A stretch of DNA of 64,000 nt from a virus. Within the stretch, counting starts at the first letter, position 1; each line of letters starts with the position of its first letter. The stretch is from UHGV virus genome UHGV-0279745. The stretch is one strand, 5' to 3'. Position numbers and translations under genes: made by a program. Positions 211-62,909 of this stretch are shown in pieces. A model generated the notes under the pieces. It was given only the letters and a program-made list of their open reading frames with translations, ran no database searches and was not told the origin of the DNA.

Positions 211-231
211 AGATATATATTACTTAAGTGA
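211..231 (+). promoter_or_regulatory. candidate early-type phage promoter element, copy 1 (agatatatattacttaagtga)
   Basis: One of three near-identical AT-rich motifs in the window; followed by a 10-bp-stem hairpin at 234..260. Confidence 0.4.
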
Positions 232-313
232 ATAGGGGCTGAACTGGCACTTCAGCCCCTACGGACACGTTTCATTCGAAACGGATTGATTAAACCATTT
301 GGGGAGACAGATC

Positions 314-1362: not shown

Positions 1363-1917
1363 ATGTATCTGACTAAACTGAAAAATGAAATTATCCAATC
1401 CCTTGAAAAAGGTGTAGGTGAACATTTCTTTAACTGTCCCTATACCGTACTGACCAATACCATTATTCAGCCAGGTGCGATGATAGTAGGGGTGAGTGTA
1501 CAAGCTGTGGAGGAAACCCCGCTGCGTCGCAACATCACGCGTAAAACGCATATCCCATTTAGAACGGGCTTTACAGATTACCTTCAGAGCTTACTGAAAG
1601 ATAGCGTTTGGAAAACAGGCAGCTTCTTCCACGATGGGAAGACTTCCACGCTGGTTTATAAAGAGAACACCAAGTATCTGGTTGATTTTCTCTTAGCGCG
1701 TCAATACGATTTCTTTCCATCCCCTTCTGGCACCACCCCTGATAATCCAGGTAAGTTATTAAACCAAGACGAAGCCGAAGCACTCTTTACAAGACTTCGG
1801 AATGAGCACTGCGATGTTGATGACTGGGAAACGTTGATCGCTGTCGCCAAAGTACATGGTTGGTATACTGTACGTAAAATCGGTCAGCAGTTGTTGTTCT
1901 TAGCTTACCCTGCTTAA
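1363..1917 (+). CDS. hypothetical protein, paralog family A member 2
   Basis: ORF track; strong RBS (ctaaaaggag); C-terminal HGWYTVRKIGQQLLFLA motif. Confidence 0.65.
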   Translation: MYLTKLKNEIIQSLEKGVGEHFFNCPYTVLTNTIIQPGAMIVGVSVQAVEETPLRRNITRKTHIPFRTGFTDYLQSLLKDSVWKTGSFFHDGKTSTLVYKENTKYLVDFLLARQYDFFPSPSGTTPDNPGKLLNQDEAEALFTRLRNEHCDVDDWETLIAVAKVHGWYTVRKIGQQLLFLAYPA

Positions 1918-1946: not shown

Positions 1947-3098
1947 ATGCGAAATATTATTTCTAAGCCAGGACATGCCAAGATCCTAAAAGAACTGATG
2001 GACAGATGCTATAATCGGACTTGGTCACTACCAAGCTTAACCATCGAGTCTTCATTACAACGTGAGTTGTTTGGTTATAACTTGGGCTGTTGTGTACTTA
2101 GTGAATACAACCAGGTTATCGCGCCTGTCGATGTCTGTACTTCCGATGAAGAAATTGAAGGTTACCAGTTCACAGCTTACACAAATTGTGGACTAAATTA
2201 CCGTAAACTCGTTGTTAGGGAAATGAGTAGCAACCGGAAGATTATGTTTAAGGTCTTCCCAAGTGGTAAAGTCAGTAATTTATGTTTTCAGCTTGAGAAA
2301 GTGCCCTTTCACGGTGCAGCCATTTTAACTAAACCAGAACTCCTGTTATTAAGCGGGTTAATTGGCTTTGAAGTAAAAACCATCAAAGTTGAGCAGGAAC
2401 TTACACGAAACGATTTCGGCTCAACTTGGTACGAAAGTTTCTTCCGCTACGAAATGTTAAGTGATAAAGCTATCAAACTCACTTACCGTTCTACCGACGA
2501 CATCGTTTACCACATTTTAATTAGCGGCGAACCCCACCAGATTATTGAAGTCGGAGGAGAAAAATCCGTGCGTACCTTAAAAGATGAATTAACTGATTTT
2601 GTTAACAAAATTGATAACGTGGGTATCAGTGAATTATTGTTCCCGATTCAACATCCAGAGCTGCTTGACGAGAAATCTGAAAACGTGGTTATGGGTGTGC
2701 ATTTACTTCCTGACCATCTTGCTATCTACCGTACACTTTCTAAGAATCAACTTAAAGTGTGGTGCCTGTTAAAAGACCTTTTAACAGAGGCGGGGTGGTC
2801 GTGTAGTGTAGATGTTAACTGTGAAGGAGTTGCGTTCTTCATCACAATAGGCAATCGTAGTTTTTCTGTCGATTTACCTACTCGCAGCTATTACAATTTC
2901 TTCCCGACCGCAGAAGGACGTACTGAAAAAGAACCCGCATTACTGCTCAGTGCTGAGGAGTCCAATGCGTTAATGGCGAAACTAAAGGCGAAAGACGAGA
3001 AGCTGGATGCTTTACATCTACCTATAATCGGGAAAGACTACGGTTGGGCTGACGTGCAAAAATACGGCAGTCAGCTGTTGTTTGTTGCTGACCTTTAA
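1947..3098 (+). CDS. hypothetical protein, paralog family A member 3
   Basis: ORF track; RBS ctaaaggag; C-terminal GWADVQKYGSQLLFVA motif. Confidence 0.65.
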   Translation: MRNIISKPGHAKILKELMDRCYNRTWSLPSLTIESSLQRELFGYNLGCCVLSEYNQVIAPVDVCTSDEEIEGYQFTAYTNCGLNYRKLVVREMSSNRKIMFKVFPSGKVSNLCFQLEKVPFHGAAILTKPELLLLSGLIGFEVKTIKVEQELTRNDFGSTWYESFFRYEMLSDKAIKLTYRSTDDIVYHILISGEPHQIIEVGGEKSVRTLKDELTDFVNKIDNVGISELLFPIQHPELLDEKSENVVMGVHLLPDHLAIYRTLSKNQLKVWCLLKDLLTEAGWSCSVDVNCEGVAFFITIGNRSFSVDLPTRSYYNFFPTAEGRTEKEPALLLSAEESNALMAKLKAKDEKLDALHLPIIGKDYGWADVQKYGSQLLFVADL

Positions 3099-3165: not shown

Positions 3166-3939
3166 ATGAAAGTCCATTTAGACGACATCTTTAAAACCGA
3201 ACCGTATATGATCGAAGGTTCGCTAACATCACTACTATTTGCCGATAGATTAGATCGTACGCTGCAATTACAATCGGTCGAATCTGCACCCGTTGATGAT
3301 GTAGAGCGTTACGAGCGCATCAATCATACGCGGGGTGAGTATCGTCGCTATAAGCCAAATTCACTAAGCATCAAGCTCTGGCAAGTGAGCACAGGTAAAG
3401 TATTAACTTATCGCGCTGTCGGTAGTTATTACATTCAACAAGCCAAAGAATGGCTAGAGAAAGTTAAAGAACTGAACTTCGATCTACTGAGCAAAAAACT
3501 GCGCGATCATAACGCCAGTTTGCCGATACGTAATTATTTCTCCACGATTGAAAATAGTCGATGCTTCGTTTCACGTGAAACCACGATATTACCTGGGGCT
3601 GATGTTCAGACGACACTAAAAGATGTGGTTGTGAAGAAAATCTTTCATGAATCTGAACACGTTGGATTTCGTATCTATTTAACGCACAAGAGACCATTTA
3701 CCGTGATTCACGTTGTTACCGCACCCGAAGGCTCAGCGGTTATTCGAGAACTTCCTGATGCTCGAGACCGTTGCCCTAATGAGCCGCTTTATTTAATGTC
3801 AGGAACAAAATCAACCGCGTTGATGTCCCGTTACAGCATGTTAGATGTTGTTGACGCTGCTATGAAACTGGGTTGGAAAGAAGTGCAGCAACATGGTAAA
3901 CAATTGCTGTTTATTGCCGATGTAAAACTTAATCAATAG
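3166..3939 (+). CDS. hypothetical protein, paralog family A member 4
   Basis: ORF track; N-terminal LDDIF and C-terminal LGWKEVQQHGKQLLFIA motifs. Confidence 0.65.
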   Translation: MKVHLDDIFKTEPYMIEGSLTSLLFADRLDRTLQLQSVESAPVDDVERYERINHTRGEYRRYKPNSLSIKLWQVSTGKVLTYRAVGSYYIQQAKEWLEKVKELNFDLLSKKLRDHNASLPIRNYFSTIENSRCFVSRETTILPGADVQTTLKDVVVKKIFHESEHVGFRIYLTHKRPFTVIHVVTAPEGSAVIRELPDARDRCPNEPLYLMSGTKSTALMSRYSMLDVVDAAMKLGWKEVQQHGKQLLFIADVKLNQ

Positions 3940-4532: not shown

Positions 4533-4570
4533 TCGGTGGGGGTAAACCCCCCACCTTTTATTTTTTTGTT
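4533..4570 (+). terminator. intrinsic terminator
   Basis: ggtggggg-taaa-cccccacc hairpin followed by a long T-run. Confidence 0.7.
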
Positions 4571-4592: not shown

Positions 4593-4614
4593 AGATATAT
4601 ATTACCTAGGTGAG
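4593..4614 (+). promoter_or_regulatory. candidate early-type phage promoter element, copy 2 (agatatatattacctaggtgag)
   Basis: Contains TATATTAC; lies between a terminator and the next gene; followed by a gtgagag/ctctcac hairpin (4610..4631). Confidence 0.45.
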
Positions 4615-4660
4615 AGTACAAAAGCTCTCACTTAATAAAACCATTTTAGGAGTATTAAAG

Positions 4661-5032
4661 ATGAAAAACGAATTATTTAAAGACCCGTTTGTTGTATTAA
4701 TGATCGTTACTCGCGCTGCCACTAACCCAGAAAACCTGAAACGTTTACTTACTAACGAAGCATACCTTATCGAACAGCGTGACGCGCAGTTAGCCAAACC
4801 GCACGCTGAAGGCCAGGCGAAAGACCTTATCTCTATTTTCCGTAACGAAGAATGGCGTAAAAACAACGAGCTGTCCGACAACTTGACGGTTGCAATTGCA
4901 AAACTCTTGACACTGTTCAATCTCGACAAAGACATTAACCAAAGCCTTTCTACAGAAGAACGTCTGGAAATGATAAGAGGTATCGGAGATAGTTATACAC
5001 AGATTAAAGCATTCCCCAACACAGTTATTTAA
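4661..5032 (+). CDS. hypothetical early protein, dispersed paralog of the 62129 gene
   Basis: ATG at 4661 with extended RBS ttaggagtattaaag; N-terminus MKNELFKDPFVVLMI identical to the 62129 ORF; first 44 coding nt identical. Confidence 0.7.
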   Translation: MKNELFKDPFVVLMIVTRAATNPENLKRLLTNEAYLIEQRDAQLAKPHAEGQAKDLISIFRNEEWRKNNELSDNLTVAIAKLLTLFNLDKDINQSLSTEERLEMIRGIGDSYTQIKAFPNTVI

Positions 5033-5078: not shown

Positions 5079-5540
5079 ATGAAAACCTTTATCACATTCT
5101 TAATAACCATTTTAACTTTCGGCCTCAATAGCGCACACGCCGCTATCAACAGCTGGGAACAAATACAAAACCCTGGGCAGGCAGTTTACGAAATCGAGGA
5201 CACCGCCGGAAACGGACTGTCTATCAACTGTGACACAGAAACTGCGAATCGCAAATTTTACGGTCGCATGGTTTGGTATTACGGTGAACCCGTAGGTGCA
5301 ACTAACGCGGAAGATAACACGATGGATATTGTCGTAAACGGCAAAACCTATAACATCCCTACCGTGGACGGTAGTGACAAAGCAGAACACGCTTGGGTTG
5401 CTTTCGTTAAAGCTATCGGTAATGCCAAAACTTTCAGTGTGAGTATCAATGGTAACGATGCCGCTAACTTTACCGTAGAAGGCGAACGTCTGTCTGAAAC
5501 TTTCTTCCAAAACTGTGGACACACCCGTCCTAACAAATAA
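5079..5540 (+). CDS. small secreted protein (predicted signal peptide)
   Basis: ORF track; hydrophobic N-terminus ending AHA; Cys residues. Confidence 0.65.
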   Translation: MKTFITFLITILTFGLNSAHAAINSWEQIQNPGQAVYEIEDTAGNGLSINCDTETANRKFYGRMVWYYGEPVGATNAEDNTMDIVVNGKTYNIPTVDGSDKAEHAWVAFVKAIGNAKTFSVSINGNDAANFTVEGERLSETFFQNCGHTRPNK

Positions 5541-5568
5541 CTATTAGTCTTTTTTAGAGTGCGTGAAA

Positions 5569-5955
5569 ATGAATATCAGAACTATACTTTATACCATCAT
5601 TATTTTCTGTGCGGTCGGAATTACTGGCACTTATGCTTTCGGTGATTCAGATGTCCGTTATTACGAACCGGCTCCTGACTCACCGATTATCAACCCGGAT
5701 GAGACGCCTACGTTAATGCGCAGTTTCGGTAAACTACAAGTTTATCGTTTAGTGCGTGGTGAAACGTGTACGGGATTACTCATTGCTGACACCCGTGCAC
5801 AAGTCTACCAACGTCTGACGGATATCGCCTGCGAACAACCAAAAGTCATGTCAGTTAGTATCCATCCGCTATCAGTTGGTAACTATACCGCTGTGGACTT
5901 CTTTCACAACGCCGAATTAATCGGACGTGTTACCTTAAATCGCCCTGCTGAATAA
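5569..5955 (+). CDS. small exported or membrane protein
   Basis: ORF track (5563 GTG alternative start); hydrophobic N-terminal segment. Confidence 0.5.
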   Translation: MNIRTILYTIIIFCAVGITGTYAFGDSDVRYYEPAPDSPIINPDETPTLMRSFGKLQVYRLVRGETCTGLLIADTRAQVYQRLTDIACEQPKVMSVSIHPLSVGNYTAVDFFHNAELIGRVTLNRPAE

Positions 5956-5973
5956 TCTAAAGGAGTAGTTATA

Positions 5974-6459
5974 ATGAAACGTTTACACACATTGATGTTC
6001 TTTCTGGTTTTCTTGTTTATCGGTGTCACGCCAACTGTAGATGCGGCCTCCGTAGACGAATTGCTTACCTGCGATGGAAACGCTTGGGAAGGTCAGCCAA
6101 ATGCGTGCCCAAACATCAACGACTTGTACGATACCGATAAGTCGTTTAAAGCCGTTGTTGATAAAACATTAGACCCTGTGGGACTGGATGGTATGTTCGG
6201 CTCTAAAGGTTACATGGATGGCCCTGGTGGTAACATGTATCCGGTAAACATCAACAACAAAATCTGGATTGAAAGTGGCGGTTGTAAAGCTAACGCTTGT
6301 GGTTGGGAATACATCGTAACGCTATACAACCCACACACCAAGAAACTCGTCGGCTATTACTACAACATCGACCCCGGTTATCTGATTTGGTTCGGTGATA
6401 TCGGTGTTGCCGAATTCGCTTACCTGGTTAAGAAATACGTAGAACAATCTAAATACTAA
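5974..6459 (+). CDS. small secreted cysteine-containing protein
   Basis: ORF track; signal peptide ending VDA; strong RBS ctaaaggag; multiple Cys. Confidence 0.65.
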   Translation: MKRLHTLMFFLVFLFIGVTPTVDAASVDELLTCDGNAWEGQPNACPNINDLYDTDKSFKAVVDKTLDPVGLDGMFGSKGYMDGPGGNMYPVNINNKIWIESGGCKANACGWEYIVTLYNPHTKKLVGYYYNIDPGYLIWFGDIGVAEFAYLVKKYVEQSKY

Positions 6460-6470
6460 GGACTTTTATC

Positions 6471-6881
6471 ATGAAAACTATCATCAATACTCTTCTCATT
6501 GCAATGGCTGTTCTGTTCTCTGTCAACGCTACAGCAAAAACAATACAGTTGCCAGACAATATTAAGTACGTCAATAGTACCGATGATTTCTATTGTACGG
6601 AAATTGACGGGTTGTACTGCCAGGCGAAAAGCCTGTTTAAATACAAAGGTAGCAGATACGTATTCATCGTTGAGCAAGGTGGTGCCTGGTGCTACGACAG
6701 CCCAATGTCCGTACTCAACCTCGAAACGTGGAAGGCTCAGCGTCTCGAATACAACGACAAACGTCTGTGCTCTGGTAATAACAAACCATTCTTCGAAGTC
6801 GTAGATGGTGTGCCAATGGTAGGGATATTAGACACTTCGGAAAAACCTATCGTTGTAGCTATGGATAAACTTAAAATTTAA
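6471..6881 (+). CDS. small secreted cysteine-containing protein
   Basis: ORF track; signal peptide ending ATA; 5 Cys. Confidence 0.65.
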   Translation: MKTIINTLLIAMAVLFSVNATAKTIQLPDNIKYVNSTDDFYCTEIDGLYCQAKSLFKYKGSRYVFIVEQGGAWCYDSPMSVLNLETWKAQRLEYNDKRLCSGNNKPFFEVVDGVPMVGILDTSEKPIVVAMDKLKI

Positions 6882-6891
6882 GGAGTAACTC

Positions 6892-7281
6892 ATGCGTCTC
6901 GTCTGCGTTTTAGCATTCTTCTTCTCCCTGAGTGTAGCAGCATCTACTCAAGTTAACGATTTACTGCTAACCCCAAACAACAATACCGATTACCAGTACA
7001 ATCCTCCGGGGTTTGAAGTTTGTGAAGTCGGTGAAACAATCTGCCAAGAAGTCGGCGCAGACGGGCGCTATATTCTGGTAAAAGCTGATGGTGGCACAAT
7101 GTGTCCCGCAGGTTATTACTTTCTGCTCGATTCCGTCGCAAGAGAGGTTCTTCCTATCACCACGAAAACGTGCGACCCTACCGTTGTCTTAACTCTCGCT
7201 AAAAGCAAATCTCGCGACCGTTATCTGATCGTTATCGAAGAACGGGGCAAGATGGCTGGTGCTATCGAATTAGATCATTGA
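6892..7281 (+). CDS. small secreted cysteine-containing protein
   Basis: ORF track; signal peptide ending AAS; 4 Cys. Confidence 0.65.
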   Translation: MRLVCVLAFFFSLSVAASTQVNDLLLTPNNNTDYQYNPPGFEVCEVGETICQEVGADGRYILVKADGGTMCPAGYYFLLDSVAREVLPITTKTCDPTVVLTLAKSKSRDRYLIVIEERGKMAGAIELDH

Positions 7282-61992: not shown

Positions 61993-62036
61993 CGGCTAGT
62001 CTATTCATCGAATAGACTAGCCCACCTTTATTTTAA
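61993..62036 (+). terminator. intrinsic terminator
   Basis: gctagtctattc-atcg-gaatagactagc 12-bp stem plus T-run. Confidence 0.7.
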
Positions 62037-62055: not shown

Positions 62056-62077
62056 AGATATATTTTACTTAGGTGAG
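62056..62077 (+). promoter_or_regulatory. candidate early-type phage promoter element, copy 3 (agatatattttacttaggtgag)
   Basis: Same motif and same terminator-promoter-gene arrangement as copy 2. Confidence 0.4.
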
Positions 62078-62128
62078 CGTTGTAGAATTACACGCTATTC
62101 GACTGTTTAACCTAAAGGAGTATTAAGA

Positions 62129-62518
62129 ATGAAAAACGAATTATTTAAAGACCCGTTTGTTGTATTAATGATTTCTACTCGTGCTATCACACGTCAAGAT
62201 GACCTGGAACGATTAATTACAGATGAAACTTATCTGTGCGAGCAACGTGACAAACTACTGAACAAAGAATGTTCTTGTGAAGATATCGGTCCTCTAGTGA
62301 CTATCGTCCATAACCCAGAGTGGCGTAGAAACAACGAATTGTCTGATATCTTGAGTGTTTCGCTTGCAAAACTGGCAATGTTGTTCTCTCTCGATAAAGA
62401 CCTTAAACAATGTCTTACTACGCCAGAGCGCATCAAAATGTTTGAAGGCATTCGGGAATCAGTTAAACAAATTAACGCTATCAAAAGCAATTGGATACTC
62501 TCTAGCGTAGGTAGCTAA
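62129..62518 (+). CDS. hypothetical early protein, dispersed paralog of the 4661 gene
   Basis: RBS cctaaaggagtattaaga; first 44 nt of CDS identical to 4661..4704; protein similar along full length. Confidence 0.7.
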   Translation: MKNELFKDPFVVLMISTRAITRQDDLERLITDETYLCEQRDKLLNKECSCEDIGPLVTIVHNPEWRRNNELSDILSVSLAKLAMLFSLDKDLKQCLTTPERIKMFEGIRESVKQINAIKSNWILSSVGS

Positions 62519-62519
62519 G

Positions 62520-62909
62520 ATGGAATGGCCAAAAGAACTTATCAAAGTCTGTCGTGACCCCTTCACCTTATGGATTCTGTGTAGCTTACGTCGTGATGAC
62601 AGATTCTATACTTTCGTAACAGACCCACAAGCACTTGAGCTCCACGTAAAACGCGTTGAGGCGCATTTAGAGACGTTAAAAGAGGAAAGCAATACCATCG
62701 TACCTAAAGATGCGTTTTTGTGCCGTATGGCGTCTCCTAAGTGGCGTGAAGCGCATCGACTAAAAGCACCTACGCTCCCGGATATGGTGCAAGAGCTTGC
62801 AAGGGTAGTAAGCGCTGACCATATCCTTTATCGAAACATTATCCAAGAACCTGACGATTGGAAAAACCATCGTATTCTGTTGGCACGCTGTCAGTTCACA
62901 TTCTCTTAA
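62520..62909 (+). CDS. hypothetical protein
   Basis: ORF track. Confidence 0.55.
   Translation: MEWPKELIKVCRDPFTLWILCSLRRDDRFYTFVTDPQALELHVKRVEAHLETLKEESNTIVPKDAFLCRMASPKWREAHRLKAPTLPDMVQELARVVSADHILYRNIIQEPDDWKNHRILLARCQFTFS

Follow-up and report, generated by a model that had tools for sequence, protein, structure and literature searches.

Two diverged paralogous genes in a virus genome begin with the same 44 coding nucleotides, and recombination and gene conversion anchored at a conserved N-terminal motif probably, though far from certainly, explain this identity. The stretch of DNA analyzed, hereafter the window, comprises 64,000 nt of the virus genome UHGV-0279745. A small hypervariable family of early genes, encoding proteins of ~125 aa, occupies two promoter-proximal slots, each of which holds one of several deeply diverged allelic types. 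In the mechanism that we propose, homologous recombination and gene conversion would carry these types from phage to phage and from one locus to the other. On the left, exchange would be anchored at the only stretch common to all types, namely the ribosome-binding site (RBS) and the codons for MKNELFKDPFVV(LM), where selection on the protein sequence of the N-terminal motif may maintain enough identity for recombination to continue. Because it would be repeatedly homogenized, this 5′ block would have a recent genealogy, independent of the gene body, and the two copies in the window would share 44 nt because both carry the common haplotype of their clade. The variable bodies would act as early host-interaction factors, and a second divergent copy would widen the repertoire of the phage.

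Two Paralogs in an SPN3US-Like Genome

The window is collinear, gene for gene, with positions 161–225 kb of the Salmonella jumbo phage SPN3US. Among deposited phages, the RNA polymerase beta subunit, the most conserved gene tested, has ~75% nucleotide identity to its best matches, and judged by these comparisons the window comes from an SPN3US-related jumbo phage without a close deposited relative. Relatives were taken from IMG/VR, ENA, Logan, NCBI assemblies, and metagenomes, with contigs of 220–228 kb, several of them from Salmonella or Enterobacter assemblies. The lineage was seen as contigs of this size in many isolate assemblies of Salmonella enterica and Enterobacter (P0003, P0004, P0007, P0010, P0011, P0027, P0028, and P0031), which suggests a carrier state or pseudolysogeny, or else culture contamination. 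The features of the window on which our analysis draws are as follows, all on the plus strand.

211..232, +, third early promoter motif, the sole other copy in the window; its gene has no similarity to the 5′ block
4535..4555, +, intrinsic-terminator-like hairpin GGTGGGGG-TAAAC-CCCCCACC with a T-run after it, at the end of the gp177-like gene lying upstream; kept in relatives at the A locus
4593..4614, +, A-locus early promoter motif AGATATATATTACCTAGGTGAG, putatively of the virion-RNAP type
4609..4632, +, A-locus leader hairpin GGUGAGAGU...ACUCUCACU at the predicted transcript 5′ end; retained in A-locus relatives with loop changes
4648..4704, +, conserved 5′ block of copy A: RBS AGGAGTATTAA and 44 coding nt (codons 1–14 and two bases of codon 15)
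4661..5032, +, copy A: ORF of 123 aa, type A, accessory paralog of the SPN3US gp249 family
5079..5540, +, 153-aa signal-peptide gene in the variable A slot; in some relatives directly behind the promoter without a paralog, in others absent
61994..62022, +, 13-bp terminator-like hairpin after the gp248-like (NT5C-like) gene
62056..62077, +, B-locus early promoter motif AGATATATTTTACTTAGGTGAG; same architecture upstream of SPN3US gp249
62072..62100, +, B-locus leader hairpin at the predicted transcript 5′ end; leader locus-specific
62116..62172, +, conserved 5′ block of copy B: RBS and first 44 coding nt
62129..62518, +, copy B: ORF of 129 aa, type B, syntenic ortholog of SPN3US gp249
62520..62909, +, gp250-like gene; its 5′ end is the right-hand junction of the type-F replacement in relatives

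A preliminary description of this DNA had reported two ORFs at these positions, ~57 kb apart, as clear paralogs whose proteins have diverged, and our analysis agrees. Both ORFs lie on the plus strand with their starts separated by 57,468 nt, and the proteins are identical at 68 of 123 residues (55%, gap-free; BLASTP E 2e-46). The reading frame of copy A is open further 5′ to a GTG at 4610; we chose the ATG at 4661 as its start because AGGAG lies eight bases upstream and all homologs agree on this position.

Copy B has the gp248-like NT5C-type gene on one side and the gp250-like and gp251 HD-domain genes on the other, as does gp249 in SPN3US. Copy A is flanked by gp177-like and gp180-like genes, a position at which SPN3US lacks any member of the family. 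Both copies match the uncharacterized phrog_27024 (copy A, E 6.7e-11; copy B, E 2.9e-11), and tblastn matches to SPN3US-like phages range from E 1e-5 to 7e-9. Identity to SPN3US gp249 is only 30–37%, with an N-terminal L-x-x-DPF-V motif common to it and both window copies. A profile search of 1.8 billion representatives recovered only ~8 true members, all of them SPN3US-like and all with the L-x-x-DPF-V N-terminus. Deposited SPN3US-like isolates carry one family copy each (one place per record) and near-complete relative genomes only two; further copies, which the preliminary description had proposed to look for, were absent from the window both at the DNA level with 3 mismatches and by tblastn. 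The gp250-like gene has the same length as copy B, with collinear DPF and WR motifs, and matches the family weakly (phrog_27024, E 0.004; hhalign, E 0.014, probability 3%); from its sequence, it may be an ancient tandem paralog of copy B.

Identity of the 5′ Ends

Alignment of both loci at the DNA level confirmed that the first 44 coding nucleotides of copy A and copy B match without exception. This 44-mer occurs at only two sites in the window, even with 3 mismatches tolerated, and 0 occurrences are expected by chance. Together with the AGGAGTATTAA ribosome-binding block that both genes share, the copies have 3 mismatches in 58 nt, as against an identity of 59% downstream of nucleotide 44. 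Degenerate codons specifying the same residue are identical in 12 of 12 cases within codons 2–13 and in 23 of 51 cases thereafter (Fisher P 3e-4). Using the codon usage of the genome, the probability of 12 matching codons at saturation is 1.3e-5, and a run of at least 44 nt was obtained in 1 of 200,000 codon-column shuffles (permutation P ~5e-6). The run far exceeds what the rest of the gene would lead one to expect, and protein conservation does not explain it.

We give virtually no weight to the explanation that the identity arose by chance or through a collapsed or mis-joined repeat in assembly, the artefact that the preliminary description had named as its refuter. Assemblers do struggle nearby: two contigs of relatives (L028 and L029; ERR2789514_545 and ERR2789509_28641) both stop precisely 82 nt before the A-locus gene, within the promoter and leader, as one might see if the assembly graph branched there because of a repeat or a heterogeneous population at this slot. 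However, the permutation result speaks against chance, both copies stand in unique, syntenic contexts, and the independent assemblies IMGVR_UViG_3300029126_000001 and CYGL01000001.1 keep the two loci in the same arrangement at a spacing of ~57.4 kb.

Early Promoters and Leaders

Each gene was said to follow a terminator and an early promoter, and we could locate the hairpins and a 22-nt motif at both loci. This motif, AGATATATWTTACYTAGGTGAG, occurs three times in the window (0 expected) and is found in SPN3US at both orthologous positions, upstream of gp180 (165691) and of gp249. In jumbo phages with a virion RNA polymerase, an AT-rich motif of ~10 nt is conserved upstream of presumed early operons (PMC7598289), a description that the window motif fits. 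No sigma-70 consensus was found at the A- or B-locus promoter sites. From these sequence features we infer that the motif is an early promoter of the virion-RNAP type.

A stable hairpin directly follows every copy of the promoter motif, at 232..270, 4609..4632, and 62072..62100 in the window and at 165703.. and 223293.. in SPN3US (L003/L004). The stems differ in sequence between loci, with the hairpin itself maintained, and early transcripts of this phage group could generally begin with such a structure, which might act in mRNA stability or promoter clearance.

The leaders of the A and B loci are unrelated in sequence, whereas within each locus they are conserved among relatives, with ~5% divergence where flanking dS is ~1. 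In comparisons of A with B, the 5′ block therefore appears as an island bounded on both sides.

The 5′ Block Across Allelic Types

The preliminary description had treated the 44-nt identity as a feature of the pair. Our comparisons show instead that the block is nearly invariant across the whole family. At the two loci, relatives carry at least seven allelic types with 37–60% amino acid identity, and in all the related genomes that we examined the first 31–44 nt are nearly identical, whatever the type or locus. Over 63 between-type pairs, nucleotide divergence is 2.8% in codons 1–12 and 45% in the part of the gene that begins at codon 15; codons for the same residue agree in 630 of 675 cases (93%) in the former and in 1262 of 2668 (47%) in the latter. 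In the other conserved peptide block, EWRxNNxLSD, the corresponding figure is 155 of 389 (40%). Between phage clades, the block has 1–2 differences in 42 nt, compared with a flanking-gene dS of 0.9–1.4. The more distant SPN3US and pEa29 retain the DPF codons alone.

Synonymous change within and between types separates recombination from an RNA element as the cause of such conservation. Within types, pS is 0.13 in the block and 0.19 in the body; between types, the values are 0.17 and 0.71, respectively. Across six roughly independent within-type contrasts, 7 synonymous changes were counted per 36 sites in the block and 98 per 463 in the body. The within-type block-to-body ratio is ~0.7–0.9, with small counts behind it (7 changes in the block). 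At least 9 of 42 block positions are variable, with synonymous variants at codons 5, 6, 11, 12, and 13. The synonymous rate of the block is thus about normal within types, and constraint at the nucleotide level is unsupported. Moreover, the 3′ limit of conservation depends on the type (31, 36, 42–44, ~126, or ~145 nt), as is expected of crossover points and not of a fixed element. Two polymorphisms, N3S (AAC/AGC) and F6 (TTT/TTC), are common to several types and to both loci, and all four of their combinations were found. Within single genomes, the A and B blocks show 0 differences in the window, 0 in 36 nt in CYGL01, and 1 in 3300029126, a comparison that covers three genomes and few polymorphic sites. 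The genealogy of the block is young and decoupled from that of the gene body.

The preliminary description had also raised nucleotide-level constraint, for translation initiation or an RNA element, as a source of the identity. In such an account, the block and RBS would form an element on both mRNAs (a translation-initiation enhancer, an operator for a repressor or RNA-binding protein, or a DNA site) held by purifying selection at the base level. Several observations lean this way. The block is contiguous with leaders that are themselves only ~5% diverged per locus at a flanking dS of ~1, its conservation between A and B is two-sided, with a diverged leader 5′ and a diverged body 3′, and its base composition is AT-rich (25% GC versus 45% for the window). 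The block is also more conserved between clades than flanking synonymous sites are, so selection instead of exchange could be at work, and an AT-rich block is what one would expect of a start region selected for efficient initiation, which counts against the recombination reading.

Tests for such an element were negative in most respects. Folding of the leader with the start of the coding sequence gave the 5′-terminal hairpin only, and the block has no shared, consistent, or significant structure (z −1.8 to +0.7). We compared the accessibility of the native initiation region with that of 600 synonymous recodings per locus, and the native region was no more open, as 77% and 38% of recodings were at least as open. 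The total folding energy of the native sequence at the B locus is weaker than that of 99% of synonymous recodings, which favors an element, but the B locus alone is unusual in this way. Rfam 15 gave 0 matches at gathering score in the whole window and, at a relaxed threshold, one chance-level match at the A locus (23.8 bits; gathering score, 65). No similar block is present on the third early gene of the window, and the retention of the DPF codons alone in SPN3US and pEa29 likewise speaks against an element. With within-type synonymous change, folding, recoding, and Rfam all against it, we consider this explanation unlikely; we keep it as a minority reading because of the low between-clade divergence, the AT-richness, and the small within-type counts. 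A practical warning follows for similar cases, in that nucleotide identity at the start of a gene need not mean an RNA element.

We also entertain, as a rather improbable reading, that the block is a functional “address” for interchangeable early effectors, either as a 12-residue peptide, MKNELFKDPFVV, that would dock to a common phage or host partner, or as an mRNA start that would be read by a phage factor. In the latter version, the injected RNA polymerase would make the transcripts ahead of phage nucleus formation, and the factor would time their translation. If such an address exists, these jumbo phages of the nucleus-forming type would possess a modular arsenal, with a constant head and a variable warhead, in one or two doses.

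Exchange Between Alleles and Loci

Mosaic alleles bear directly on recombination and gene conversion, the explanation that we prefer. In P0020 (L027, L028, and L029; three contigs from two projects), an A-locus leader is followed by type-B codons 1–42 and then by a type-C remainder, and the type-B segment has one difference from L008. This chimera shows exchange between the A and B loci. The contigs come from short-read assemblies, in which mis-joins are possible in principle, although here two template switches would have to have occurred in each of three assemblies. Type E is chimeric too (B/E), with its first ~48 codons in common with type B. Type F replaces exactly the interval from gp249 codon 13 through gp250 codon 10, and outside this interval the genome that carries it hardly differs from the window. 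In type-F genomes (L035, 1565..1990), the gp250-like gene starts before the 141-aa allele has ended, and its CRDPF codons are the exact point from which the sequence again resembles the window. Allele junctions fall inside the 5′ block or at its end.

Taken together, these alleles show mosaic structure and exchange between loci. The gene conversion suggested by the preliminary description is therefore upheld in a broader form, as recurrent allelic and ectopic exchange across the lineage, anchored at the 5′ module. We also considered a recent conversion patch in copy A of the window, where the RBS and codon 6 differences from L007 are clustered, and rejected it as unproven because other genomes carry these RBS variants at their A locus and the intergenic region is generally diverged. 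The metagenome scan yielded six loci only, too few to give adequate power to a test of concerted evolution that compares divergence within and between genomes.

Exchange may also involve larger units. Between the window and L008, which belong to two phage clades, the type-B gene has a dS of 0.36, whereas the flanking gp248-like, gp250-like, and HD genes have a dS of 0.9–1.4. This suggests that the whole promoter-plus-gene B cassette crossed between clades after the backbones had diverged.

Contents of the Two Slots

Among relatives, the B slot holds type B, type E (chimeric with B), type F (141 aa), or type G, and the A slot has three configurations. In the first, the promoter leads straight into the 153-aa gene, with no paralog (L023–L026); in the second, it leads to a type C or D paralog, with no 153-aa gene (L012–L017); in the third, a type A paralog and then the 153-aa gene follow the promoter (the window, L007/L022, L033, and L038). 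The paralog-less slot retains the SPN3US leader, which indicates that the A-slot paralog is a derived insertion, and the left junction of this insertion lies immediately after GGTGAGAGT in the leader. On the evidence of sequence and synteny, the B locus appears ancestral and the A locus accessory, placed behind the promoter that would drive gp180 in SPN3US.

These slot contents bear on the term “duplicated” used in the preliminary description. The paralogy stands, but a local or recent origin within this genome does not, given a dS of ~1.5 and an A slot that in relatives is empty or filled by type A, C, or D. A recent in-genome duplication of copy B, after which the body of copy A diverged fast by positive selection and the 5′ end stayed unchanged, would agree with the raised within-type omega (0.5–0.7) and with the promoter motif and RBS common to both copies. 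The gene bodies, however, have a dN of 0.44 and a saturated dS of ~1.5, and positive selection does not raise dS; in addition, the leaders are unrelated, and among relatives the A slot is either vacant or filled by one of three deeply different types. We therefore hold such a duplication to be very unlikely. Because the dS of the body is saturated and the A slot shows presence/absence variation, we regard copy A as an exchangeable cassette.

Further small genes accompany the early promoters. Downstream of copy A, the ORFs starting at 5079, 5563, 5974, 6471, and 6892 (window 5079..7281) have signal-peptide-like hydrophobic N-termini and form a putative early operon of small, probably exported proteins. 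None of the five has a Pfam match; for the product of 5079..5540, the Pfam scan gave no match at E ≤ 0.01, although the precomputed annotation of its ortholog in L038 (456..917) is Pfam PF27224 (YfjT). What appears to be another paralog family lies behind the first early promoter, where three ORFs in tandem (1363..1917, 1947..3098, and 3166..3939) have in common a C-terminal domain with GW...G.QLLF.A at its end (blastp E values of 1e-4 to 1e-13).

A Candidate Family of Host-Interaction Factors

The AlphaFold2 model of the protein is all-alpha (pLDDT 77.5, pTM 0.71), and in it the N-terminal motif is built into the first helices instead of standing apart as a signal. There was no Pfam match above cut-off, no PADLOC match, and no match in a PDB sequence search; the sole match in BFVD is an uncharacterized Erwinia jumbo-phage protein. 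Within-type omega is 0.5–0.7 for types A and E and 0.05–0.45 for type B, compared with 0.03–0.18 for flanking genes. Four properties, namely presumed early expression, variation in presence or absence, a large number of old allele classes, and an elevated omega, together lead us to infer that the family consists of host-interaction factors under diversifying pressure, which may act in host take-over or anti-defence. The two slots, with their swapped cassettes and fast evolution, would mark candidate arms-race genes, and since genes of this kind are candidate counter-defence or host take-over factors, functional screens could reasonably be directed at the family.

Comparison With Known Systems

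In T4-like phages, promoter-early stem-loops (PeSLs), cassettes of a terminator hairpin and an early promoter, flank small non-essential genes and act as recombination points (Arbiol et al., 2010, PMC2839356; Comeau et al., 2014, PMC4122927). Homologous recombination between these short conserved cassettes is the proposed driver of plastic and hyperplastic regions (PMC2839356; PMC4122927). Similarly, at both loci in the window a stem-loop terminator is followed by an early promoter, and insertion, deletion, and replacement junctions between close relatives lie at the conserved cassette. The differences are also clear. The PeSL promoter is strong and sigma-70-like, whereas the window promoter is AT-rich and of the phiKZ/SPN3US-like virion-RNAP type; it has three copies only in the 64 kb of the window; and the anchor between loci consists of the promoter core and, separately, the RBS and first 12–14 codons, with unrelated leaders intervening. 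By analogy, the window system would resemble PeSL-mediated shuffling in the way it works, and we do not class it as PeSL. Recombination anchors made of short regulatory and 5′-coding sequence, previously described for T4-like PeSLs, thus appear to extend to phages with virion-RNAP promoters.

With SPN3US gp249, copy B has in common its position, the architecture of terminator, promoter, and leader hairpin, and the L-x-x-DPF-V motif. Unlike the single-copy SPN3US-like isolates, the lineage of the window has a second, dispersed copy and many allelic types.

Tail-fibre and adhesin genes of the T4 type, host-interaction genes with concerted evolution and mosaicism, combine a conserved N-terminus with a swappable, diverged remainder, with junctions at the edges of conserved motifs. 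The window family may be likened to them in its conserved 5′ module, diverged downstream modules, recombination junctions at motif edges, and raised protein-level substitution. In contrast to these structural genes, its members are early, non-structural proteins of 125 aa that are predicted to be all-alpha, and their conserved module spans only 12–14 codons.
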